From assembly GCA_004299705.1 (NCBI GenBank), contig SCQS01000061.1, positions 32,420 to 96,419 on the forward strand: a stretch of DNA of 64,000 nucleotides, given 5' to 3'. The notes beneath the pieces are model-generated. The model worked only from the letters and a program-made list of their open reading frames with translations. It was not told the origin of the DNA and did no database searches. Below are positions 13,913 to 26,292 of this stretch, one piece after another. The stretch's first letter is position 1. The number at the start of each line of letters is the position of its first letter. Position numbers and translations under genes: made by a program. Origin of the DNA: Rhodanobacteraceae bacterium. GTDB taxonomy: Bacteria; Pseudomonadota; Gammaproteobacteria; Xanthomonadales; Rhodanobacteraceae.

Positions 13913-15829
13913 TCACATCCTGCCCGCTTCCAGCGGCCGTTCGCGGTGCATCACCGCCCATTCCACGTGCTCGGCCAGCGCGGCTTCGCCGAGCGCGCGC
14001 AGGATGCCACGTTGTTCTTCCAGGTTGTCGGTGCGGTCGAGCGCCTTGCGCGCGTCGCCGAACACGCGGCCCATGAAACGGTATTGCCGGATCAGTTCGC
14101 GGTCGGCCTTGCGGAACGAATACGCCTCGCGCACCGCGGCGATGATCGAGAACACCGCCATGATCACGATCAGGTCGTTCTTGGCGTCGTAGGAAAGCTG
14201 GCGCAGGAATACCGCCATGAACACGCTGATCAGGATCGCCGCCAGCAGGCAGATCGCGCCGATCATCTCGTTGATGTGGTGGGTACGCTCGCGCTGTTCG
14301 GTGCGGTGCCGGTAATAACCCAGCTCGCCATGTTCCTCGTCGCCGACCCAGTCCTCGATCACCCCGCGCACCTGCTGCGCGTCCGGGCTCGACACATGGG
14401 CGCAGGCAGAAAGCCCGGCGCTGCGCATCACGTTGCGCACCCAGCCGAGTTCGATGTCCTGCTTCTGCATCAGGCTGTCGTGCGCGAACTCGGGATCGGT
14501 GGTCAGCGAGATGCCCGCGCGCCGCCAGTAACACTGCACGCGCAGACCCTCCGCCAGTGCGCGATAGTCGAGGTACTTGCGGTGCCAGGCGCGCCGTTTG
14601 GCGATGAAGCTGGTCACCACGCCGACCACGAACAGCAGCAGGAACACGTACAGCATGTTGTCCGAGCGTGGCAGGTTGTCGTACACCGTGAAGGCAATAC
14701 CCATCAGCGCAGCGGCGGTGTAGATGATGCGCAGCCCCAGCAGCACGCGCCTCTGGAAGTGCACGGCCAGCCAGTCGGCGGCGGCGAACAGGCCGGCGGC
14801 AGTGCCGCAGGCCTGCGCGCCGTGGCGCTCGTCGATCTCGGCGTGGAACGCGGCGATTTCCTCGCGGTACTTCGCGGCGTCAAGGTTGAATTCGTTGGCG
14901 TTTGCGAACACCCGTCGGAAAGCCGGTGGCATCGGCGCGTCCGGCTGGCCGGTTGCGTCAGGGGTGCGCCAGATCATTTGCCCCGCTTGCAGCGACGCCG
15001 CCGGCGCGCCATCCGGCGCTTCGCGCGCACAGACGAGGTGGCACAGCAGCCGTTCATCGCCGCCACCGGCCAGCCAGCGCGGCGCGCGGCGGCGGCGATC
15101 GAAAGCGCTGGGCAGGGCGCCGGTCAGGTAGTAATCCACGATTTGCGCGGTGCCCCCGAGCTTGCTGCTGTCCTTGCCGTCCCAGATCGCCAGCAGCACG
15201 TGGCAATGCCGTGCCACGAACATGCCGGCCTGCGCGTACTGGCGGTCGCGGTCGACGCCGTTGCGGTGGAGTCCGTCCGCACTGTGTCCGGGCAGCAGCG
15301 GCAGCTCGATCACCTGCGCCTGCGCGCACAGCGATTCGAATTGCCCTCGCGTGGCGGCATCTGCGAAGTCCCGCGCGTACAACGCGTGCGGCAGTGGCAG
15401 CGGAGCGATCAGCCGCGCACCCAGCTTCAGGCCTTCCTCCGCCACCAGCTGGTCGCCGCCCTCGGCCAGTGGCGACAGGATGGTCAGCGGGGAATTCGGG
15501 AACTCGCCCTGTAGTTGCATCAGCCACGCCCGCACGCGGGCGCGGATCGGCGCGATTTCGGCCGTTGCCAAATTGCGGTGGCTGGTGATGCCGATGACCA
15601 GCGGCGAGGCGACAGCGTGGATGGGTGAAGCCGCAACGCTCGCAGGTCCTGGTGCGTCATCCGCAGGCGTGGATTGAAGTTCGCCCGCCGCACCGGGTAC
15701 GTCGCCCACGGACGGCGCTCGACCCTCTCGCGTCATGCCGGGGCCAGCGCCGGCGTTGCCGGCGATGGAACCCGGAATCTGGAAATTTTGTTCGTTGTTT
15801 TGCATGAAAACTGGAAACACTTGTTGCAC
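13913..15829 (-). CDS. SLOG-like (DprA/LOG-superfamily Rossmannoid) domain fused to two 2-TM SLATT-like modules; candidate nucleotide-gated membrane effector
   Basis: ORF 13913..15829 with a GTG start; alternative ATG at 15805. Low-complexity N-terminus. Motifs VIGITSHRN, ILSPLAEGGDQLVAEEG, LIAPLPLP, HCHVLLAIWDG and GGTAQIVDYY resemble the SLOG/DprA-LOG pattern. Two TM pairs follow: LRIIYTAAALMGIAFTV/MLYVFLLLFVVGVVTSFI and IGAICLLAAILISVFMAVFL/LIVIMAVFSIIAAV. Each pair is followed by an amphipathic helix, as in SLATT/DUF4231. The CDS itself is high confidence; the domain call needs HMM or structure confirmation. Confidence 0.6.
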   Translation of the reverse strand: MQQVFPVFMQNNEQNFQIPGSIAGNAGAGPGMTREGRAPSVGDVPGAAGELQSTPADDAPGPASVAASPIHAVASPLVIGITSHRNLATAEIAPIRARVRAWLMQLQGEFPNSPLTILSPLAEGGDQLVAEEGLKLGARLIAPLPLPHALYARDFADAATRGQFESLCAQAQVIELPLLPGHSADGLHRNGVDRDRQYAQAGMFVARHCHVLLAIWDGKDSSKLGGTAQIVDYYLTGALPSAFDRRRRAPRWLAGGGDERLLCHLVCAREAPDGAPAASLQAGQMIWRTPDATGQPDAPMPPAFRRVFANANEFNLDAAKYREEIAAFHAEIDERHGAQACGTAAGLFAAADWLAVHFQRRVLLGLRIIYTAAALMGIAFTVYDNLPRSDNMLYVFLLLFVVGVVTSFIAKRRAWHRKYLDYRALAEGLRVQCYWRRAGISLTTDPEFAHDSLMQKQDIELGWVRNVMRSAGLSACAHVSSPDAQQVRGVIEDWVGDEEHGELGYYRHRTEQRERTHHINEMIGAICLLAAILISVFMAVFLRQLSYDAKNDLIVIMAVFSIIAAVREAYSFRKADRELIRQYRFMGRVFGDARKALDRTDNLEEQRGILRALGEAALAEHVEWAVMHRERPLEAGRM

Positions 15830-15978: not shown

Positions 15979-16216
15979 TCAACAGTTGTCGATCGTTGGG
16001 TTGGTAGTGACGTCGGGCGTCACCGAACCCGCTCCACCTGCTGCGGCCATGCAAGCGTTCTGGTTGCCGAACGCACATTCCACATCTTGCACCACGTACT
16101 GGAACCATGAGCCTGAGGAAGCAGTCGGTGCGGCATTGGCCACACTGGCGCTACCGGCGAGAAGCAACCCGATCAGCACGGCCACGGTGCGGGGGGGGGG
16201 TAAGTTTGCGTTTCAT
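15979..16216 (-). CDS. Small secreted Cys-containing protein (module A, A3); frame broken by a C10 tract in the signal-peptide codons
   Basis: ATG at 16216 has the SD AGAAGGAGAG and encodes MKRKLTPP..., then hits the homopolymer at 16191-16200. The downstream frame (ORF 15979..16185) reads VAVLIGLLLAGSASVANA|APTASS... and ends TNPTIDNC. Removing 1 nt (or adding 2) restores a continuous ~78-aa precursor. The leader and SD are near-identical to those of the paralog at 19965. Confidence 0.5.
16191..16200. repeat. G10 (C10 on the coding strand) homopolymer tract inside A3
   Basis: Printed as gggggggggg at 16191-16200. It places the ATG at 16216 out of frame (31 nt) with the signal-peptide ORF starting at 16185. 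Confidence 0.85.
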
Positions 16217-16236
16217 GATGCTCTCCTTCTGTGTTT

Positions 16237-16252
16237 GCGGCAGGATTGCCGC
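16237..16252 (-). promoter_or_regulatory. Conserved leader hairpin upstream of A3 (paralog at 19987-20002)
   Basis: Minus-strand GCGGCAatccTGCCGC lies about 9 nt upstream of the SD AGAAGGAGAG. About 45 nt of leader is conserved with module B. Confidence 0.45.
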
Positions 16253-16317
16253 GGTGAAACGGCGTCAGAAATACGCGAATTCTCGAAGTCGCAAGTCGTG
16301 TACACGCGATCGAAGAG

Positions 16318-16662
16318 TCATTTGTTATCGACTGTCGGATCACCCGGATTCCCTCCGACTCCGGATCCCGTGCAACAAGTCTGGCTCGGATTCCCATAGG
16401 ACACGCAAAGCGTGTAGGGATAGACGATTACAGGTCCGTTGTTCTGGTTGTTGTCGGTAACGGTGATCTCGCCGTCTGTTACGGTCGGGGTGCCGAAGAT
16501 CGATGTCGGCAGTTCGGTGAGTGAAGCGAACGTGAAATCCTGATTTTCGGCCGGTAGCCAGTTGATGGGGGCCGTGCCCCGATCCATTTGAAGATGCGGA
16601 GGATCGCAGGTGACCACCGGTGGGTTCACGCTGGTATCAAGGGAAACATGGACGTCTGGCAT
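16318..16662 (-). CDS. Small cytoplasmic beta-rich protein (module A, A2), C-terminal DP-x-V-x-NK motif
   Basis: ORF 16318..16800; start placed at MPDVHVSLD (ATG 16662), 114 aa, no signal peptide. Ends GDPTVDNK. Features ITVTDNNQNNGPVIVYPYTLCV. Lies 59 nt downstream of TIR-A. Confidence 0.65.
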   Translation of the reverse strand: MPDVHVSLDTSVNPPVVTCDPPHLQMDRGTAPINWLPAENQDFTFASLTELPTSIFGTPTVTDGEITVTDNNQNNGPVIVYPYTLCVSYGNPSQTCCTGSGVGGNPGDPTVDNK

Positions 16663-16720
16663 GGGAATGATCCTTTTTGATGCGCGGCACTCGGAAGGCG
16701 GGCCGCATCGCCTCGCTGCT

Positions 16721-19009
16721 TCAGTGTGCCTCGCCTGCGTGTCGCGGCGCGTTTGACGGGCGGCGTCCTTCGGCAATATCGGACTGCATGATTTGCGCAA
16801 GCCGTTGCTGGAATGCCGCGTTGGCTGGATAGCCGATGTGATGGCTGGCCAGCAGCGCCACGAAGTCCGGCGTGCGAAAACCCATGGCGTTGAGTTTGGC
16901 GATTGCCGGCTGCGCGGCTTGCGTTTGACCCAGGCTTAGCAGTGCTTCTGCATAGGCCGCGAGGAAGTTCGGGTCGTCACCCGCGCGCAACGTGGGTTGC
17001 AGCAGATTGCGCGCCTGTGCCCACTCGCGCTGTGCGGCGGCACTGTCGCGGCGTCGTGCGGCGATCGTCCCCAGCAGGATGTCGGCTTGCGCTCCGAGCA
17101 GGATCAGGCCGCGATCGTCCGGCATCTTCGTGCGCAATTTGGCAACAATGGCCGCCGCGGCTGCGGCTGCCTTGTCCGCGCCTTCGATGTCGGTGCGCGC
17201 CAGTTGCAAGCGTGCAGCTTCCAGCTGCGCCTGCGCCAAATCCGGTGGCCAATCAGTACTGGTTGGATCTTTCGCACTCAGCTCGCTCAACACCCGCACG
17301 GCATCAGCGTCGGCCGTCGCCGCGTCGCCGAGCCGCCCTGCTTGCCGCTGCAGCCCCCCCAACTGTTGGCTGTAGAGGCCGTAGTAGTCCTGCCAGCCGG
17401 AGTCAGTCGGGTCGAAAACCGTCAGTGCCTTGGCGCTGTCCACCGCTGCGGTGGTGAAGCGCAGTGCGTTGTCCAGATCGCCGCACCATCCCAGCGTGCG
17501 GCCCAGGATCGCGTCACTGATCAGCAGATAGGTTTGTGCATGATGATCGCTTGGACTGCCGGCAGCCAGCGACGCCTTGATGCGCTGGTCGGCGCGATAG
17601 TCCGTAATTGCCAGATCGAGCCGGCCTTGTTCCAGCGCCAGTTTTCCCAGGCTGTCGTATTGGTTGCCCAGGTACAACTGCCAACGCGCTTGCTTGGGTT
17701 GACGAGCGCGCCAACGCGTGTAGATGTTCAACGCGGCTTCGTACTGGATTCCGGCGTCGTCGAAATCTCCACGGTGGTCCAGCACGTAACCGCTGTCGTG
17801 ATACGCCGCAGCGAGTTCGAATGCGAGTTCGCTGTCATCGGGCTTCGCCGTTGCGGCTTTCTGCAGGGCGGCAGTGGCGGCCCGGAAGTCTTGCAGTGCG
17901 CGCGGCATGTCGCCCTGATACAAATGAGCCTGGCCGACCCATTTGAGGCTGTTGCCGTAGGCGGCTTGGCGAGACGAATTATCGGGCGCGCGCCTGACGA
18001 GTTCGGCGGCCAGTTTGGAGGCGTCTTGATACGCCCGCAGCGCCGCTTGTGTCTTGCCCTGATCCATGCGCACGCTGCCGATTTTTTCAAGTGCGGTGAC
18101 GCGCATCTCAAGTGATGCGTCCGTTGCGTCGGCGACGGGCAACGATTCGAAGTATGCAAGCGCCTTGTCGTCCACGGCCTGCATGATGTCCAAGCGATCT
18201 ACTTGCGCCAGTTTGTCGTTGAGGTCGCCGAGCATGAAGTTGACCAACCCCTCGGCCTGCTTCTGCCGGCGCTCGGCGGCCTGCTTGGCGGTCACGGCTT
18301 CGTGTTGCGCGATCACGGCGCGATGACGGGAAACCAAGGCCGCGATGGCCAGTACGATGGTCACGGCCATCACCACGACCGCGATCGCGGTGACGGCCGC
18401 CATCCGGCGCATCTGCCGGCGCTGCTCGCGCTGCTTCAGCGCATCGAAGCCGACGTCGAGCATCCCGGCGATCAGTTTCAGTTTCGCGTTGGGTTTGCCG
18501 TCCTTGCCGGGGCGTGCGTCGGCAGCGATCGGTTCGGCGCGTTTGGCGATGGGCCGGCCCTCGGCATCCGTGGCGAAGCGCAGCGCAGGGCAGAAGCATT
18601 CTTCCGCTTCGCGACCGGAGATGTCGGAAGCACTCGGTTCGCCATCCACGATCAGGCAGAAAATTCGATCGCCGCGGCCCATCCGCTTGTACGCCAGCAC
18701 TTCCTCGTTGACCCAGCGCGACGCTGCCGAGGCGGGCGAGCAGATCACGATCAGGTTTTCGGACTGCGAGAGCGCCTGGTTGATCCTGGCGCCGAGCTCG
18801 GGCGCGCTGGAAAGCTCGTCGCGGTCGCGGAAGACCGGGTTCAGGCGGCGCGGGATCGCGCCGTGCGCGGTCTGCTTGCCGACCAGCCGCGACGGCACGC
18901 GATACGTCTCCAACGCCTTGTGCAGCCAGCCCGCCCACGCCTTGTCGCGGTGGCTGTAGCTCAAGAAGGCGCGATAGATGGGCGTCTGCTGGGTGATGGG
19001 GTCCGGCAT
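16721..19009 (-). CDS. TIR domain - single TM - TPR-like repeat protein (TIR-A)
   Basis: N-terminal TIR motifs YRAFLSYSHRDKAWAGWLHKALE, RDRDEL, LIVICSPASAASRWVNEEV (conserved Glu) and IFCLIVDGEP. TM helix MAAVTAIAVVVMAVTIVLAIAALV (about aa 203-226). About 530 aa of Ala/Leu/Gln-rich TPR-like helical repeats follow. Confidence 0.9.
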   Translation of the reverse strand: MPDPITQQTPIYRAFLSYSHRDKAWAGWLHKALETYRVPSRLVGKQTAHGAIPRRLNPVFRDRDELSSAPELGARINQALSQSENLIVICSPASAASRWVNEEVLAYKRMGRGDRIFCLIVDGEPSASDISGREAEECFCPALRFATDAEGRPIAKRAEPIAADARPGKDGKPNAKLKLIAGMLDVGFDALKQREQRRQMRRMAAVTAIAVVVMAVTIVLAIAALVSRHRAVIAQHEAVTAKQAAERRQKQAEGLVNFMLGDLNDKLAQVDRLDIMQAVDDKALAYFESLPVADATDASLEMRVTALEKIGSVRMDQGKTQAALRAYQDASKLAAELVRRAPDNSSRQAAYGNSLKWVGQAHLYQGDMPRALQDFRAATAALQKAATAKPDDSELAFELAAAYHDSGYVLDHRGDFDDAGIQYEAALNIYTRWRARQPKQARWQLYLGNQYDSLGKLALEQGRLDLAITDYRADQRIKASLAAGSPSDHHAQTYLLISDAILGRTLGWCGDLDNALRFTTAAVDSAKALTVFDPTDSGWQDYYGLYSQQLGGLQRQAGRLGDAATADADAVRVLSELSAKDPTSTDWPPDLAQAQLEAARLQLARTDIEGADKAAAAAAAIVAKLRTKMPDDRGLILLGAQADILLGTIAARRRDSAAAQREWAQARNLLQPTLRAGDDPNFLAAYAEALLSLGQTQAAQPAIAKLNAMGFRTPDFVALLASHHIGYPANAAFQQRLAQIMQSDIAEGRRPSNAPRHAGEAH

Positions 19010-19101
19010 GGGTCTGACTCTTTGCTCGTGCTTTCCGGCGCCTGCCGGGAATGCGTCGTTGCGCTTGGGCGTTGGCCGAGGAAACTCTGATTAACCTGCT
19101 A

Positions 19102-19137
19102 CGTCGTCATTTCCGCGAAAGTGGAAATCCAGTGACG
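19102..19137. repeat. REP family D hairpin in the spacer between modules A and B
   Basis: cgtcgtcatttccgcgaaagtggaaatccagtgacg. Confidence 0.65.
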
Positions 19138-19266
19138 TTGCGCAACGTACTGAAGAAGGCACTGGATTGACTCGCGCCATCCTTGGCGCTCTCCCCCGAT
19201 CAGAAGCGCCTCGGGGCAGGCTCTGCGGACAGCCTGCGGCGTCTCGCGTTGGCAATCCTGCCAATG

Positions 19267-19308
19267 CATTCGGGGCACCGCGATGGAGCTGCCGTGGCCC
19301 CGAATGAC
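19267..19308. repeat. REP family D-like hairpin in the inter-module spacer
   Basis: cattcggggcaccgcgatggagctgccgtggccccgaatgac. A further hairpin, ccgggttacc...ggtaacccgg, lies at about 19345-19388. Confidence 0.65.
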
Positions 19309-19464
19309 CAATTGCTTCCACGTCATCAGAGCGGCTGGATAAATTCCGGGTTACCGTGCGACGTCATGGAGTGGTAACCCGGATTACAGCTTTGTTTCGA
19401 TGGACGGGAGGCCGGTTTCGGGCTTCCGTTTCCGATGCATCGTGACATCAGATCATCAGCTGAG

Positions 19465-19965
19465 TTATTTGTTGATGATCATTGGGTCAATGATGGCCAG
19501 TGTTCCATCCGAACGCTGGATCGTGAGGGTGAATTCGAATTCATCCGGAGTGGGGTCGGCGTCGAACACGGACAATCGCGTAGTGTTAGCGCGAGCAACG
19601 AGCGTTCGCATCGGAAATGCAGTGCTCCCGATTGAATCGCTGGTACCGCCCGATACCTCCTTGAAGCTGATGCCGACCGGGCTGTATGTGGTTCCATCAG
19701 CCCCCTGGATGATGAAACGAATCTCGGTAGGCCCGTTCACGGTCAGAGCGCCGCTCGAATCCATGGACACCATGCTGCCCCCGTTATACAGCTGGTACGA
19801 TGCGGGCGATGACAATGACAGCGGCAGGGCTTGCACGACGGTGACAACGACGGTCGGTACGTTTACCGAGGCTGATGCGGATTGGGCGTAAGCCAATCTA
19901 ACCCCCCCCAAGCCGATACCAGCCAACGCTAATGCGATTGCCGCGGATGACAGAATACGTTTCAT
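19465..19965 (-). CDS. Secreted beta-rich protein (module B, B3), C-terminal DPMIINK motif
   Basis: ORF 19465..20037. Start placed at MKRILSSAAIALALAGIGLGGVRLAYA|QSAS (signal peptide) with SD AGAAGGAGAG; 166 aa. Ends IIDPMIINK. GC is lower than in the flanking sequence. Confidence 0.75.
   Translation of the reverse strand: MKRILSSAAIALALAGIGLGGVRLAYAQSASASVNVPTVVVTVVQALPLSLSSPASYQLYNGGSMVSMDSSGALTVNGPTEIRFIIQGADGTTYSPVGISFKEVSGGTSDSIGSTAFPMRTLVARANTTRLSVFDADPTPDEFEFTLTIQRSDGTLAIIDPMIINK
19902..19909. repeat. C8 (G8 on the coding strand) homopolymer inside the B3 signal-peptide codons
   Basis: acccccccca at 19901-19910. It encodes the GLGG part of the signal peptide and is currently in frame. 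Confidence 0.8.
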
Positions 19966-19986
19966 GATGCTCTCCTTCTGCGTGTG

Positions 19987-20002
19987 CGGCGGAATTGCCG
20001 CA
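19987..20002 (-). promoter_or_regulatory. Conserved leader hairpin upstream of B3 (paralog of 16237-16252)
   Basis: Minus-strand GCGGCaattccGCCGC, followed by cacacgcAGAAGGAGAGcatcATG, which is identical in register to the A3 leader. Confidence 0.45.
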
Positions 20003-20301
20003 GTTAAACAACAGGGGTCAACATGATTTTCCAGCATGGGTGCCCCAACCGGATCGGATAGTTCCTACGGTTTCGCCGCGACCCGGTGGTGGATTTGTCT
20101 CACAGGGATTGCCCTTGACGGTGGCGTGCAACAGCTAGAACCCGGTGATTTTTTCGCAACGCTTGATGTGCCAAGGCGTTGGCAAACGCGCCGCATCCTG
20201 CGGCTTCCCGTCAAGCCATCGGCTGCGCCGATGTTCGTTTCGACATCCTCCCTGCACGGTTCGGATCGCGATTCCGGGATGATGGGTTGAGTCGATGTTT
20301 C

Positions 20302-20712
20302 CTAGACCGGCTTGTTCTGGATCATCGGGTCGCAGGGGATGGTCACGTTCTCGGTGGTGTCGAGCACCGTCACCTTGTAGCGCGCATCGATGGCCGCGTC
20401 GCAGCGGTCGTTGATCGCGCGCGTCCGCGGCGCGTTGCCTTGCGCCGTCAATTGATTGGCGTTGTCGTTGACGAAGCTGATTTCGGCGAACCGGTATCGC
20501 GCATCGGTGTTCGCGGCGAACATCAGCGTGGTCGCCGCGTGGCCGCCGCCGATGCCATACACGATCGAACCGTTGTTGGTGGGTTGATTGCCGCCGCTGT
20601 ACTTGTAACTGTAGGTCTGGCCGTTGGACGCCATAACGTTGGTCCAGCCGTCGCCATTGCTGGGAAAGTTGCGGATGTCCAGGGATACGTTGGTCGGGTT
20701 GTTGGCGGGCAT
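20302..20712 (-). CDS. Small cytoplasmic beta-rich protein (module B, B2), C-terminal CDPMIQNKPV motif
   Basis: ORF 20302..21039; start placed at MPANNPTNV (ATG 20712) with SD GGAG 8 nt upstream; 136 aa, no signal peptide. Lies 103 nt downstream of TIR-B. Confidence 0.7.
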   Translation of the reverse strand: MPANNPTNVSLDIRNFPSNGDGWTNVMASNGQTYSYKYSGGNQPTNNGSIVYGIGGGHAATTLMFAANTDARYRFAEISFVNDNANQLTAQGNAPRTRAINDRCDAAIDARYKVTVLDTTENVTIPCDPMIQNKPV

Positions 20713-20815
20713 CGTCTTTACTCCGGTTGCAGGACTGGCCGTTGGGGGCCGGGGTGGCGGTCGCGCGTTGCATCGGTGCGATGCAGGCGCGACCGATGGG
20801 TGCTGGCGTAGTGGA

Positions 20816-22957
20816 TCATTGCGAGGTAACCGTGGCTTGCGCGATCGGCGTTTGCTTCCATGGGTACAGCGGCACATAGCCGCTGTGGTCGAGCTTTGCC
20901 AGATACGGCGCGGCGTCGGCGTCACGGTGCTGTGCCAGCAGCACGCGCACCAGCAAGGGGAGGCGGTCGAACGCCGGCGGATCGCTGCCTTCGCGCAGGA
21001 TGTGTTCGGCCTCGGCCCACGCCGCGCGCGCGGCTGCAACGTCGCCGCGCTGCGCGGCGACGTTGCCTTGCAGCCAGTGCAATTCCGCCGGCAGCAAGCC
21101 GTAGCCGTCGTTGCCTTGTTGGCTCGTCGCAGCCGCTTTCAGCCCGGCATCGGCCTGCGACAGCCAGGCGGACGCTCCGTCGAGGTCACTGCGCCGCCAG
21201 GCCAACTCACCCAGCAGCACCCGGGCTTTCGCCAGCCAATGCTGGGCCAGGCCGTCGTTGGGCTCGGCGGCGTGCACCGCAGAAGCGGCGCGTTCTGCCT
21301 TGCGCGCCGCTGCTTGCGCTTGCGCAGGTGACACGAGTGAGTCCAGCCGCGCCTGCCACCAGTAGTCCATGCCGAGTTGCAGCTGCCACGCCTTGTTGGT
21401 AGGGTCTTGGCGGGTCAGCGTTTCCGAAAGCGCAGCCGCTTCCGCCGCGCCACTGCGCGCGTCGGCGACTCCGCCGGTCTCGGCCTGCACCTGTACGAGG
21501 AACAGCCGTGCATCCGGCCACTGCGCTTGCCATTGCGCATTGGCGGGCTCTGCGGCGCGGTTGGCCGAGATGTAGTCGACCTGTTCGGTGAAGCGGGAGC
21601 GCGCCTCGGCGAGACGGCCATCCTTCATGGCCAGGCTGCCGAGGTAGGAAGCCACGGTCGCGGCCTCGTCGCGCAAGTCGGCGACGTGCGGATGCGTCTT
21701 GATCCAGCCGAGGTACAGCGCGTACGCAGACTGGAAGATCGTTTCGGCCTGCTGGTCGCGGTTGCGGGCGAGGTCGAGCGTGCCGAGGTTCACGTCGCCG
21801 TAAGCGACCTCGCGTTGCCACGCGAAGTTGCTTCGATCCATCGCCGCCAGCCGCAGCGCGCTGTCGCGATAGCGGGTCAGCCAGGCTTTGGCGTCGTCGA
21901 GGCGACCCTGGCGCCAGAACACGAAGCCAATCCAGTATTCGGCCTGGGCCAGGTCGAACAGCCGTTGGCCGTTGCCGGGCTGGCGCTGGTGCAGCTCGTT
22001 GCTGCGCGCATAGGCGTCGCGGAACGCCTGCATGGCCTTGTCGGCGTGGCCCTGGTCCAGCCGCACCTGACCGATGCCGGTCAACAGGCGCGCTTGCTCT
22101 TCCAGCGCGTGTTCGCTCAGGTCGCGGGGCTGCAGGGTGTCGAAATACGTGGTGGCCTTGTCGTCCACCGCGACCATCAGGTCGAGCCGTCCGACCGTGG
22201 ACAGTTTCTTGCGCAGGTCGCCCAGCATGAAGCCCAGGATGTCCTCGGCCTGGGCCTGGCGGCGCTGGGCATCGTTGCGTGCGACGTAGGCGCTGACCGC
22301 AAGCACGCTGGTGATCGCCATGCCAACCAGCGCTGCCGTCGTGATGGCCAGCAGCCGGTGGCGGTGGCGACGCGCTTCTCGGCGCGCCAAGGCATCGAAG
22401 CCGACATCCAGCATCCCGGCGATCAGTTTCAGCTTGGCGTTTTGCTTGCCGTCCTTGCCGGGACGCACGTCGGCGGCGATCGGTTCGGTGCGTTCGCCCG
22501 TCGGTTGGCCGTTCGCATCGAGTTGGAATCTCAACGCGGGGCAGAAACATTCTTCCGCTTCGCGGCCGGGCATGTCGGTGGCGTCGGGCTCGCCGTCCAC
22601 GATCAGGCAGAATATGCGTCCGGCGCGGCCCATACGCTTGTATGCCAGCACTTCCTCGTTGACCCAGCGCGAGGTGGTCGACGCAGGCGAGCAGACCACG
22701 ATCAGGTTTTCGGATCGCGCCAGCGCCTCGTTGACCCTGCGGCCAAGGTCGGTCGCGCTGGCGAGTTCCTCGCGGTCGCGGAAGATCGGGTTGAGGCGGC
22801 GCGGGATTTCACCGTGCGCGGTGCGGGTGCCGACCAGCCGCGACGGCACGCGATACGTTTCCAGTGCCCGATGCAACCAGTCCGCCCACGCCTTGTCGCG
22901 GTGGCTGTAGCTGATGAAGGCGCGGTAGGTGAAGCTGGCAACGGACGGATCGGGCAT
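20816..22957 (-). CDS. TIR domain - single TM - TPR-like repeat protein (TIR-B), paralog of TIR-A
   Basis: ORF 20816..23077; start placed at MPDPSVASFTYRAFISYSHRDKAWADWLHRALE (coordinate +/-1 by my count). The TIR, juxtamembrane region and LKLIAGMLDVGFDAL are nearly identical to TIR-A. TM helix LLAITTAALVGMAITSVLAVSAYV. The TPR-like C-terminal region is divergent. Confidence 0.9.
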   Translation of the reverse strand: MPDPSVASFTYRAFISYSHRDKAWADWLHRALETYRVPSRLVGTRTAHGEIPRRLNPIFRDREELASATDLGRRVNEALARSENLIVVCSPASTTSRWVNEEVLAYKRMGRAGRIFCLIVDGEPDATDMPGREAEECFCPALRFQLDANGQPTGERTEPIAADVRPGKDGKQNAKLKLIAGMLDVGFDALARREARRHRHRLLAITTAALVGMAITSVLAVSAYVARNDAQRRQAQAEDILGFMLGDLRKKLSTVGRLDLMVAVDDKATTYFDTLQPRDLSEHALEEQARLLTGIGQVRLDQGHADKAMQAFRDAYARSNELHQRQPGNGQRLFDLAQAEYWIGFVFWRQGRLDDAKAWLTRYRDSALRLAAMDRSNFAWQREVAYGDVNLGTLDLARNRDQQAETIFQSAYALYLGWIKTHPHVADLRDEAATVASYLGSLAMKDGRLAEARSRFTEQVDYISANRAAEPANAQWQAQWPDARLFLVQVQAETGGVADARSGAAEAAALSETLTRQDPTNKAWQLQLGMDYWWQARLDSLVSPAQAQAAARKAERAASAVHAAEPNDGLAQHWLAKARVLLGELAWRRSDLDGASAWLSQADAGLKAAATSQQGNDGYGLLPAELHWLQGNVAAQRGDVAAARAAWAEAEHILREGSDPPAFDRLPLLVRVLLAQHRDADAAPYLAKLDHSGYVPLYPWKQTPIAQATVTSQ

Positions 22958-22961
22958 CGCG

Positions 22962-22971
22962 GCCCCCCCCC
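22962..22971. repeat. C9-10 (G-run on the coding strand) homopolymer 5 nt upstream of the TIR-B start codon
   Basis: The minus strand reads ...ACGC-G(9-10)-CCGCG-ATG. The G-run occupies the SD position. Confidence 0.75.
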
Positions 22972-25633: not shown

Positions 25634-26131
25634 TCATCGCCAGATATTCGACACGCCGGGAACAGGCGAGATGTAACCCTTGCCATCCAGCTTGAACGGT
25701 TGCGGCTTGCCCTGGGTGCCCTTGCCGACCGACAGCGTGCCCTTCAGTTCATAGCTGATCGCGTTGCGCTTGGCGGCGGCCAGCGCGGCGGCGCCGGCGG
25801 CATCCGGCTTGAAGGTTGCGGTGGCTATGTCGGCGTCCATCGCAGGAATGTCCAGCGCGGGCGAAATCGCGACATGGCCGGCCGGCTTGCCGTTCAAGCT
25901 CAAGTCGGCGTCGATCGCGTAGACGTGCATGCCGGTGTCGTAGCTGTAATTCTGGAAGCGCACCACCGCGGCCCAGGTGCCGTCGCTGTTGACGGTGAGT
26001 TGCTGGATGCCGGCGGTCGGCGGCTGGAGCTTGGTGCCGGCGCCGAAGCAGCCGGCGAGAAGCATCAGCACAGTCGCGATGGCGAGGGTCTGCAGCGTGC
26101 GCACAAGGACGTGCGACGGGTGGATGATCAT
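25634..26131 (-). CDS. Lipoprotein, putative LEA-2/NDR1-like fold
   Basis: ORF 25634..26242; start at MIIHPSHVLVRTLQTLAIATVLMLLAGC (lipobox LAGC). The family call is tentative and rests on size and the beta-rich pattern. Confidence 0.5.
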   Translation of the reverse strand: MIIHPSHVLVRTLQTLAIATVLMLLAGCFGAGTKLQPPTAGIQQLTVNSDGTWAAVVRFQNYSYDTGMHVYAIDADLSLNGKPAGHVAISPALDIPAMDADIATATFKPDAAGAAALAAAKRNAISYELKGTLSVGKGTQGKPQPFKLDGKGYISPVPGVSNIWR

Positions 26132-26191
26132 TGGGCCGGCTCCTTGATGGGCAGGGCGAATCGACAAGATCCTCTGACCAGCTTCTTTTAT

Positions 26192-26292
26192 TCGTCGCCC
26201 CGGCGCAGGCCGGGGCCCAGTGTGGTGTTGCGTCGCGGCCATGGCCGCGATCCGTTTCCCTGCTGGATACCGGCCTGCGCCGGTATGACGAG
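26192..26292. repeat. REP family D hairpins
   Basis: tcgtcgccccggcgcaggccggggc (26192-26216) and ggataccggcctgcgccggtatgacgag (26265-26292). Confidence 0.65.

Follow-up and report, generated by a model that had tools for sequence, protein, structure and literature searches.

A 64,000-nucleotide stretch of contig SCQS01000061.1 from a Rhodanobacteraceae bacterium, hereafter the window, encodes on its minus strand two paralogous proteins, TIR-A and TIR-B, in which a TIR domain is followed by one transmembrane (TM) segment and a long region of tetratricopeptide repeats (TPR). We propose, by analogy with known systems and with a probability of roughly 0.55, that the two genes belong to modular receptor cassettes, whose bitopic TIR-TM-TPR proteins sense extracytoplasmic cues and feed a Thoeris-like pathway leading from TIR to SLOG/SLATT. 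Each receptor would be a type-II bitopic protein of the inner membrane, comprising a cytoplasmic TIR domain, a TM helix, juxtamembrane helices and a TPR superhelix of about 11 repeats of the peptide-binding kind. Each TPR type would be inherited together with one or more small partner genes of its own (A2 and A3 for TIR-A, B2 and B3 for TIR-B; Table 1). The enzymatic signaling, the coupling of TIR to SLOG, the ligand and the biological role are features which we infer from known systems.

The N-terminal domain of both proteins is readily recognized. Pfam TIR_2 matches aa 15-125 with E = 2.3e-12 in TIR-A and 1.3e-13 in TIR-B, and ThsB_TIR matches with E = 4e-8 and 2e-8, respectively, all above gathering scores. 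Pfam TPR matches are weak in both proteins and individually near or below cut-offs. For TIR-A, 50 sequences were used to build an AlphaFold2 model (predicted local distance difference test, pLDDT, 82.5), which comprises a TIR domain (aa 12-190), a long TM-containing helix, two or three juxtamembrane helices and about 11 TPR hairpins (~22 paired helices, aa 297-742) with pLDDT above 90. Confidence is low at aa 200-272, as expected for a TM helix in a monomer model. The hairpin region matches OGT, LGN/Pins and designed consensus TPR superhelices in Foldseek (E ~1e-8 to 1e-6). In the TIR domain, Glu103 is invariant and W99 nearly invariant among the 50 sequences, forming a W-x3-E motif, and E103 aligns with the WCxxE glutamate of the plant TIR domains L6 (SKWCLMEL) and RPV1 (SRWCLDEL). 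The equivalent glutamate (SARM1 E642, plant WCxxE) occupies the known catalytic position of TIR NADases, and the domain is probably catalytically competent. A juxtamembrane, predicted periplasmic stretch (aa ~245-300) is kept across all TPR types, which suggests a common transmission element.

A hydrophobicity scan revealed a single TM segment in 51 of 52 family members; the last one (L005, the L-numbers being labels of the compared relatives' loci) has two hydrophobic groups which probably form one segment. In the window, the Kyte-Doolittle 19-residue mean of this segment is 3.07 for TIR-A and 2.14 for TIR-B. Across the 52 members, the 15 residues N-terminal of it contain on average 5.1 lysine plus arginine residues, versus 2.2 on the C-terminal side. 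Since the receptors combine one TM segment, this charge bias, the lack of a signal peptide and an N-terminal domain with a 200-aa TIR fold, an N-in/C-out topology is predicted. The TIR-TM-TPR order and the orientation put forward in the original prediction are thereby supported, as a prediction. If the topology were reversed, or if there were no membrane span, a cytoplasmic TPR region could bind small proteins that mostly lack signal peptides, as most partners do, and the low model confidence across aa 200-272 would be of a piece with it. This alternative is very doubtful: the strong hydrophobic segment is present in all 52 members, the positive-inside bias favors N-in, export of a 200-aa TIR domain from the N-terminus is hard to credit when no signal peptide is present, and TIR domains are generally known to need cytoplasmic nicotinamide adenine dinucleotide (NAD+). 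Furthermore, secreted partner variants exist, and in relatives WD40/PQQ-like propellers are fused to this TIR-TM module.

TIR-A and TIR-B align end to end with 44% identity (BLASTP, E = 6e-152). In a global MAFFT alignment, 77% of positions are identical in aa 1-200, against 48% in the TM segment. The value is 54% for aa 226-300, falls to 22-34% for aa 301-700 and is 33% for aa 226-762 overall. The asymmetry between a conserved output and a diverged input, from which the original prediction started, is thus real (77% versus 33%), and the shared motifs cited in its favor (YRAF[LI]SYSHRDKAW, IFCLIVDGEP, EAEECFCPALRF and NAKLKLIAGMLDVGFDAL) were all found in the alignment. "Near-identical", the term then used for the TIR parts, overstates what is a strong conservation (77-80% identity), while the TPR parts are strongly diverged (33%), as had been said, but clearly homologous and collinear. 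Orthologues of TIR-A occur in L001 and L002 (75-77% identity), and those of TIR-B in L013 (83%) and in L041 and L043 (73%). A longer open reading frame (ORF) for TIR-B, starting at a GTG (to 23077), was set aside as unsupported by homologue N-termini, and the ATG at 22957 was taken. As a separate observation, G+C content is 0.62 over the TIR-A cassette (16001-20000) versus 0.65-0.67 in its flanks, and G+C at third codon positions is 0.77 in TIR-A and 0.83 in TIR-B; the lower G+C may hint at a more recent arrival of the A cassette by exchange.

More than 4,800 homologues of the receptors were found, nearly all in Rhodanobacteraceae/Lysobacterales genomes and metagenomes, and they are annotated only as "TIR domain-containing" or "TPR repeat protein". 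Any two of the 52 members share 59-90% identity in the N-module (TIR), whatever their TPR type. Identity in the C-part ranges from 22 to 86% and defines at least five deep clades in a C-domain tree. Type A is carried by TIR-A, L001, L002 and others, type A'' by L013/L020, and types B and B' by TIR-B, L013, L041 and L043 and by L002 and L039; A' and C are separate C-part clades, the latter carried for instance by L001. The 16 loci in which the whole interval is available, window included, contain one receptor (10 loci) or two (6 loci), in differing combinations of types: B+A in the window, A+C in L001, A+B' in L002 and B+A'' in L013. The flanking genes of these close relatives are nevertheless 88-90% identical.

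Within types, the TPR part shows dN/dS (nonsynonymous to synonymous substitution rates) of 0.15-0.32 over whole domains and 0.02-0.43 in every 40-codon window; each TPR type is under purifying selection. Between types, dN/dS reaches 0.56-0.63 at saturated dS (≥ 1.4), and because of this saturation these values are uninformative on positive selection. Positive selection was therefore rejected, no within-type window exceeding 0.43 and the between-type ratios being saturated. Consequently, a recent tandem duplication under diversifying selection, as originally envisaged for the pair, is contradicted by the per-domain ratios, by the existence of at least five old TPR types and by the 59-90% TIR identity found in any pair. 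"Conserved output, diversified input" remains a fair description, but of the whole family and not specifically of these two genes. Diversification takes place at the level of the repertoire and not via ongoing amino-acid change, as judged from these sequence comparisons.

How such a repertoire arose can be approached from the distinct histories of the two halves of the gene, for which pairwise estimates by the Nei-Gojobori method (NG86) and triplet counts (552 sites) were used. At identical residues, the N-modules of all pairs show a codon identity of ~0.70, where codon usage predicts ~0.48. For the C-part, codon identity between types is 0.43-0.56, against a random expectation of 0.39-0.47, and it reaches 0.76-0.79 between close orthologues. 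TIR-B and its L013 orthologue are 82.4% identical at the nucleotide level in the N-module and 87.4% in the C-part. In the triplet test, informative sites in the C-part of TIR-B favor its own TPR orthologue 646:50; in its N-module, 42 sites favor the orthologue and 38 favor TIR-A. These codon identities, the N-modules more diverged than the C-parts they accompany and the triplet tests show that the TIR and TPR modules have different histories. The receptor genes appear to be recombinant mosaics of a shared TIR-TM module and ancient, type-specific TPR modules. TIR-A and TIR-B would then be alike at their 5' ends and different at their 3' ends because the TIR-TM module has been exchanged or homogenized by recombination while the TPR types are ancient.

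Differential constraint alone could be advanced instead, i.e. a single old duplication followed by far stronger constraint on TIR, with no recombination. N-module dN/dS is indeed low in all pairs (0.11-0.29), the plateau of N-module identity at ~72-90% for most pairs could be produced by a few saturating free sites, and the N-modules of TIR-A and TIR-B are no more alike than that of TIR-A is to other genomes' copies. It is nevertheless an unlikely account, since within types the TPR part and the TIR module are conserved to a like degree: dN ranges from 0.06 to 0.23 in the former and from 0.08 to 0.17 in the latter, and these overlapping ranges indicate similar rates. Constraint on residues also leaves out the codons, since between types the N-module keeps its codon identity of ~0.70 while the C-part is near random at equally conserved residues. 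It likewise fits poorly with close TPR orthologues whose N-modules are more diverged than their C-parts, and with the two L040 paralogues, whose N-modules resemble one another more than they resemble those of their orthologues (74:38 sites, p = 9e-4). A recent gene conversion between TIR-A and TIR-B in the window was also considered and rejected: their N-module dS (0.53; 1.44 for the C-part) is on a par with the N-module dS to other genomes' copies (0.41-0.66), and the N-module of TIR-A is closer to that of L001 than to that of TIR-B. With window-specific conversion rejected, mosaicism across the family is preferred.

Each of the receptor genes examined has, downstream of it and on its strand, one or two small ORFs that end in [D/N/G]PxIxN[K/N/R] plus 0-4 residues. 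In a stricter scan of 8,103 translated segments for this tail, 57 of 58 matches lay immediately behind a receptor gene and on its strand, a count which depends on the pattern, as a looser one also matches an unrelated lipoprotein ending in PGVSNIWR. This conserved lipoprotein (25634-26242, minus strand; ..LLAGC.., ending ..SPVPGVSNIWR) has homologues in many loci, where they precede the acyl-CoA dehydrogenase gene, and its match to the loose PxVxN pattern looks like chance, with no relationship to the partner families.

The partner family co-varies with the TPR type. A2-like proteins accompany type A (19 homologues of A2, directly downstream of A-type genes), a ~132-aa family accompanies A', B2 accompanies B and DP-EP-like proteins accompany C. 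A2 is homologous to the ~132-aa family (hhalign probability 98.6%), while B2, found after B-type genes in L002, L013, L039, L041 and L043, has only a weak link to A2 when hidden Markov models are compared (probability 51%). The tails themselves co-vary per cassette: PTVDN in A2 and PTIDN in A3, PMIQN in B2 and PMIIN in B3, PPITN and PPIIN in L039; types B and C have type-specific extensions after the tail Asn. An alignment of 23 partner sequences shows no variation at the Pro and Asn of the tail and almost none at the Ile. Asp or Asn precedes the tail Pro in the four partner genes of the window.

A profile of these 23 partners aligns over its full length with PDB 3NJH/3NJI (SO1698), including the C-terminal DPQIINR, albeit weakly (E = 0.14). 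The Asp-Pro tail motif of the partners, DPxIxN[KR], has the same form as this C-terminus. Three of the 23 match Pfam DP-EP/DUF1888 at E ≤ 0.1, the best at 0.0028, below the curated cut-off. B3, which carries FDADPTPDEF and an N-terminal hydrophobic segment, matches DP-EP with E = 0.0047 (17.7 bits, below the cut-off of 25). A homologue search with B3 returned six proteins only, too few for reliable structure prediction, and a sequence search of B3 against the PDB gave nothing decisive. SO1698 reportedly cleaves itself at Asp116-Pro117 of this motif, freeing a 9-residue C-terminal peptide. Because the partners resemble SO1698 and because of this reported Asp-Pro self-cleavage, a released or presented PxIxN peptide is a plausible TPR ligand. 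Phage or envelope-derived ligands had been suggested originally; the co-inherited, tail-bearing small proteins are an alternative, endogenous candidate.

Most partners (A2, B2 and the A'-type and C-type DP-EP proteins) lack a signal peptide, and only the B3 and A3 kinds are predicted to be secreted. The smallest secreted partner is a 36-aa precursor in L017, consisting of a signal peptide followed by VTPDTTTNPWIKNK. The secreted partner genes contain a homopolymer tract within their signal-peptide codons, poly-C in the A3 kind and poly-G in the B3 kind. In A3, the Shine-Dalgarno sequence and the ATG (16214-16216) are conserved, and a C10 tract at 16191-16200 throws the rest of the ORF (15979-16185) out of frame, where C9 would restore MKRKLTPPRTVAVLIGLLLAGSASVANA followed by APT... 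A3, originally taken as one of two secreted cognate proteins, is thus out of frame in the window. B3 has a G8 tract at 19902-19909 and is in frame.

The same leader and tract as in A3 occur in nine genes, and tracts were recorded in the window, L001, L002, L015, L038, L039, L040, L062, L073, L074, L076 and L099-L125. Across genome and metagenome loci, they range from C4 to C10 and from G6 to G8. About 20 of the 23 surveyed secreted partner genes are out of frame, with both +1 and +2 shifts, and these keep intact, conserved downstream ORFs; the in-frame genes are B3 of the window, L073 and L017, the last without a tract. C/G runs of eight or more are rare in the 64-kb window, where three occur (A3, B3 and a G9 in the Shine-Dalgarno region of TIR-B), the A3 tract being the sole run of ten or more. 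Phase variation by slipped-strand mispairing is the simplest reading of these tracts, the alternatives being transcriptional slippage or assembly error.

In nine genomes, genes of the A3 and B3 types are preceded by a leader of ~50 nucleotides (..TTCACCGCGGCAATCCCGCCGCAAACACAGAAGGAGAGCATC ATG AAA CGC) whose nucleotide sequence is conserved and which may be a regulatory element. Immediately 5' of the Shine-Dalgarno sequence, the leader carries a short inverted repeat rich in G+C (CGCGGC..GCCGC). The G9 run of TIR-B lies at 22963-22971 (minus-strand reading), 5 nucleotides upstream of the ATG and in Shine-Dalgarno position, where other loci have G4-G6; changes in tract length could tune TIR-B translation.

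Downstream of the receptor cassettes lies a gene for a ~570-aa membrane protein, which we call SLOG-2xSLATT. It is predicted to comprise a cytoplasmic N-domain of SLOG fold (~aa 8-220) followed by four TM helices forming two 2TM SLATT modules, and four hydrophobic segments are indeed found in two pairs. In the AlphaFold2 model (pLDDT 79.5 overall, about 85-95 in the N-domain), the N-domain matches YpsA first (2nx2, E = 1.3e-4, target-normalized score TMt 0.65), then DprA, ShosA, Moco carrier/LOG-like proteins and PpnN in Foldseek; at the sequence level, no match for the SLOG domain was found in Pfam or the PDB. The SLATT assignment relies on below-threshold scores (NCBIfam SLATT_1, 28 bits for a cut-off of 41, and SLATT_3, 25 bits for a cut-off of 45; Pfam SLATT_3, 20.5 bits, and DUF4231, 21.7 bits), and many close homologues carry precomputed Pfam PF14015, PF18184 or PF18181 matches. 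By analogy, this protein is predicted to be a signal receiver and a membrane or pore-forming effector.

The association of this gene with the receptors is recurrent. In 26 of the 32 loci with enough downstream sequence, non-syntenic ones included, it follows the last receptor gene at a distance of 0.3-1.3 kb. This recurrence bears on whether the receptors could be stand-alone NADases of the abortive-infection kind, in which a ligand turns the TIR domain into an NAD+-depleting effector and SLOG-SLATT is functionally separate. Many bacterial TIR proteins are generally known to be terminal NADases, and five cassettes of Rhodanobacteraceae type (L008, L010, L020, L021 and L033) have no SLOG-SLATT gene downstream (within the 3.7 kb available for L010 and 10 kb for the others). 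Yet adjacency in 26 of 32 loci, in non-syntenic contexts as well, the SLOG domain being a known receptor domain for TIR products, and the presence of one effector gene after one or two receptor cassettes, the layout expected of a shared reader, make this a quite unlikely explanation.

In the Thoeris-like pathway that we favor, a periplasmic cue would first bind the TPR domain, the best candidate being the PxIxN tail or peptide of the cassette-encoded DUF1888/DP-EP-like proteins, some of which are secreted and apparently phase-variable. Ligand binding would shift the oligomeric state of the cytoplasmic TIR domains, which would then produce an NAD+-derived signal such as an isomer of cyclic ADP-ribose (cADPR). 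The SLOG domain of the adjacent SLOG-2xSLATT protein would read this signal, and its SLATT modules would alter membrane permeability. If the TIR product is read by this shared protein, several receptor types would therefore feed one effector. Precedents are found among Thoeris systems: 3'cADPR is read by a SLOG domain in type I, several TIR proteins accompany a SLOG effector in type III, and cADPR is paired with the SLATT effector ThsH in type VII (bioRxiv 10.64898/2025.12.03.692087). Similarly, YpsA-clade SLOG domains have been predicted to sense cADPR variants and SLATT domains to be membrane effectors gated by ADP-ribose derivatives (Aravind and colleagues; PMC9503650, PMC7159879).

A bolder and unlikely version would give the system a Toll-like layout. 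Periplasmic TPRs of ancient specificities would sense cognate PxIxN peptides, the TIR product would gate the SLOG-SLATT pore and the ligands would be stochastically switched ON and OFF. The peptide could be freed by self-cleaving DUF1888-type proteins or secreted from phase-variable mini-genes, and could act as a kin, lysis ("danger") or quorum cue.

The biological role may lie in phage defense or in kin, danger or peptide sensing. In 47 genome loci, a recurrent order was found: acyl-CoA dehydrogenase, GNAT, one or two receptor units (each a TIR-TM-TPR gene with its small gene or genes), the ~570-aa membrane protein, HNH and ClC. No full-length receptor homologue was found in the plasmid search, which returned remote N-domain matches only. 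This synteny, together with the lack of plasmid copies and of any PADLOC system call, argues for a resident and possibly physiological system; the turnover of types and the apparently phase-variable ligands argue for a role in conflict or recognition.

A physiological, non-immune pathway is thus possible, though still improbable in our estimation. It would report peptide-based kin, quorum or envelope status, with an NAD-derived messenger gating a channel. Its position, between acyl-CoA dehydrogenase/GNAT and HNH/ClC, is conserved and vertically inherited across Rhodanobacteraceae and Lysobacterales; the cassettes themselves encode the candidate ligands, in some cases with a signal peptide, the smallest being the L017 precursor; and TPR receptors of secreted peptides such as the RRNPP family and AimR are well known. 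Fast turnover of types among close relatives and phase-variable-looking ligand genes are, on the contrary, typical of conflict or recognition systems, and the TIR-SLOG and TIR-SLATT pairs characterized so far are anti-phage. In mechanism, this pathway overlaps with the Thoeris-like cassettes proposed above, from which it differs in biological role only.

Several observations weigh against the proposed receptor cassettes and their pathway. PADLOC returned no defense-system model for the SLOG-SLATT protein or the partners and a weak SAVED_TIR match for the receptors. Across the whole family, the locus lies between housekeeping genes, and it was not found on plasmids; a physiological role accounts for this no less well than phage defense does. 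The SLATT, DP-EP and single TPR matches of the window proteins are all below curated cut-offs, and the case for recombination is open to site-specific codon bias. Regarding the ligand, partners without signal peptides are expected in the cytoplasm while the TPR domain is predicted to be periplasmic. Moreover, Gly, Thr, Ala or Pro may precede the tail Pro in A2-type partners, and self-cleavage could therefore not be universal.

Table 1. Features of the two receptor cassettes and adjoining genes; positions are those of the window.
Feature	Length or residues	Position	Strand	Description	Basis
TIR-A	762 aa	16721..19009	-	predicted bitopic receptor	Pfam, AlphaFold2, Foldseek
TIR-A TIR module	aa 1-200	18410-19009	-		
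TIR-A putative catalytic Glu103		18701-18703	-		
TIR-A TM helix	aa ~203-227	18329-18403	-		
TIR-A predicted periplasmic part	aa 228-762			A-type TPR superhelix, about 11 hairpins	
TIR-B	713 aa from ATG	20816..22957	-	predicted bitopic receptor	Pfam, hydrophobicity, C-domain tree (B clade)
TIR-B TIR module	aa 1-~199	22361-22957	-		
TIR-B TM helix	about aa 203-223	22289-22351	-		
TIR-B predicted periplasmic part	aa 224-713			juxtamembrane helices and B-type TPR superhelix	
A2	114 aa	16318..16662	-	A-type-specific partner, beta-rich, no signal peptide, ends ...GNPGDPTVDNK	
A3 mini-gene	signal peptide + about 45 aa	15979..16216	-	ends ...TTNPTIDNC	direct sequence reading
B2	139 aa	20302..20721	-	B-type-specific partner, no signal peptide, ends ...IPCDPMIQNKPV	
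B3	166 aa	19465..19965	-	DP-EP/DUF1888-like, signal peptide, ends ...IIDPMIINK	Pfam, hydrophobicity
Conserved leaders		16217-16265 and 19966-20015	-		
SLOG-2xSLATT protein (P0121)	569 aa as called	13913..15622	-	predicted SLOG domain and two SLATT modules	AlphaFold2, Foldseek, profiles, hydrophobicity
HNH endonuclease	213 aa	12775-13416	-	76-92% identity across family	

Other features of the locus were recorded alongside. The HNH gene, whose 3' end overlaps a long ClC ORF call, shows weak PADLOC PtuB-like matches and always lies between the SLOG-SLATT and ClC genes in syntenic loci; it was excluded as a component of the system, since it accompanies the SLOG gene in syntenic loci only. In the 336-nucleotide intergenic region between B2 and B3, a sub-threshold Rfam PrrB/RsmZ match (20137-20245, minus strand; 20.4 bits versus a gathering score of 44, E = 0.25) is probably due to chance, and the Rfam scan as a whole gave sub-threshold matches only. 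A promoter and terminator scan found no sigma-70-like sites, and terminator-like sites were fewer than in shuffled sequences.

Beyond the family, a search with the TIR-TM module on its own gives at least 3,769 matching clusters formed at 50% identity (E < 1e-30), and longer relatives carry it fused to WD40 (PQQ-like) propellers, one or two in number, and to Sel1 repeats. An alphaproteobacterial TIR-TM relative in L047 (9989-14446; 62% identity over aa 10-202) stops at 341 aa beside transposase-like ORFs and is followed by a WD40-repeat ORF, which looks like a TIR-TM-WD40 receptor disrupted by an insertion sequence.

Among known systems, the locus is closest in logic to Thoeris, with which it shares one or more TIR proteins beside a single effector of SLOG fold and predicted SLATT 2TM modules, a glutamate kept at the catalytic position and, by analogy, a route from a TIR-made, NAD-derived signal through SLOG or SLATT to membrane damage. 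The receptor differs, being here a bitopic protein of ~700-760 aa with a predicted periplasmic TPR part of ~530 aa, while ThsB proteins are, to our knowledge, small and cytosolic. The effector differs as well, since type I ThsA is a SIR2-SLOG protein and the present one combines SLOG with two predicted SLATT modules and no SIR2. Partner genes with PxIxN tails are additional here, PADLOC makes no call, and the setting is a conserved chromosomal locus instead of a mobile defense island. No ThsB with such an architecture is mentioned in the Thoeris survey that was searched (bioRxiv 10.64898/2025.12.03.692087). The locus is thus filed as working like Thoeris and not as a member of it, because a TIR protein and an adjacent effector are present, while a model-based call and a defense-island location are not.

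The comparison with animal Toll-like receptors is an analogy which implies no orthology. Both have an extracytoplasmic solenoid sensor, a single TM segment and a cytoplasmic TIR domain, and both occur as paralogues with conserved TIR domains and diverse ectodomains. The polarity is inverted here, with an N-terminal TIR domain in a type-II protein; the solenoid is made of TPR (WD40 or Sel1 in relatives) and not of leucine-rich repeats; and the TIR domain keeps the NADase-type glutamate and is probably an enzyme, not an adaptor scaffold.

For the partners, the nearest known protein is SO1698 of Shewanella oneidensis (DUF1888/Pfam DP-EP), a small beta-sandwich of about 125 aa ending in ...SPDPQIINR, where the partners of the window end in DPMIINK, DPMIQNKPV, DPTVDNK and NPTIDNC. 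Osipiuk et al. (2012, cited in PMC11655445) describe this protein as an endopeptidase that cleaves itself. The resemblance is weak, with E = 0.003-0.18 and scores short of the curated cut-offs, and many A2-type members differ from it by a Gly, Thr, Ala or Pro before the tail Pro. We are aware of nothing that connects SO1698 with TIR receptors.

The predicted pairing of a TPR superhelix with a genetically linked, co-varying short peptide or tail recalls the TPR peptide receptors of the RRNPP family and phage AimR, and the TPR proteins that bind C-terminal peptides (PEX5, HOP and LGN). Those proteins are cytoplasmic and mostly transcription factors or phosphatases, whereas the TPR domain is predicted here to be periplasmic and to have a TIR output. 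The tracts of 6-10 nucleotides of poly-C/G in 5' coding regions, which vary in length between relatives and occur in both reading states, are in turn reminiscent of the contingency genes of Neisseria, Haemophilus, Campylobacter and Bordetella. They differ in that the out-of-frame fraction (about 20/23, in both shift directions) lies above the two-thirds expected by chance.

A literature search, of incomplete coverage, yielded no description of a TIR protein whose sensor is a periplasmic repeat domain, nor of PxIxN partners or such tracts. With any function established at this locus, thousands of "TIR domain-containing proteins" would gain an annotation, because the TIR-TM module is present in at least 3,769 clusters. 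The cassettes would also provide a tractable model of how a receptor repertoire diversifies, with old TPR types and their partners, a recombining output module and one shared effector, and concrete, testable hypotheses on the ligand follow from their connection with the self-cleaving orphan family DUF1888 and with secreted peptides that look phase-variable. Bacterial TIR signaling has so far been described with cytosolic phage sensors. Collectively, the comparisons suggest that membrane receptors with large repeat ectodomains could also drive the TIR to SLOG/SLATT output in response to cues outside the cytoplasm, and the locus looks like an undescribed, outside-sensing version of bacterial immune TIR signaling.

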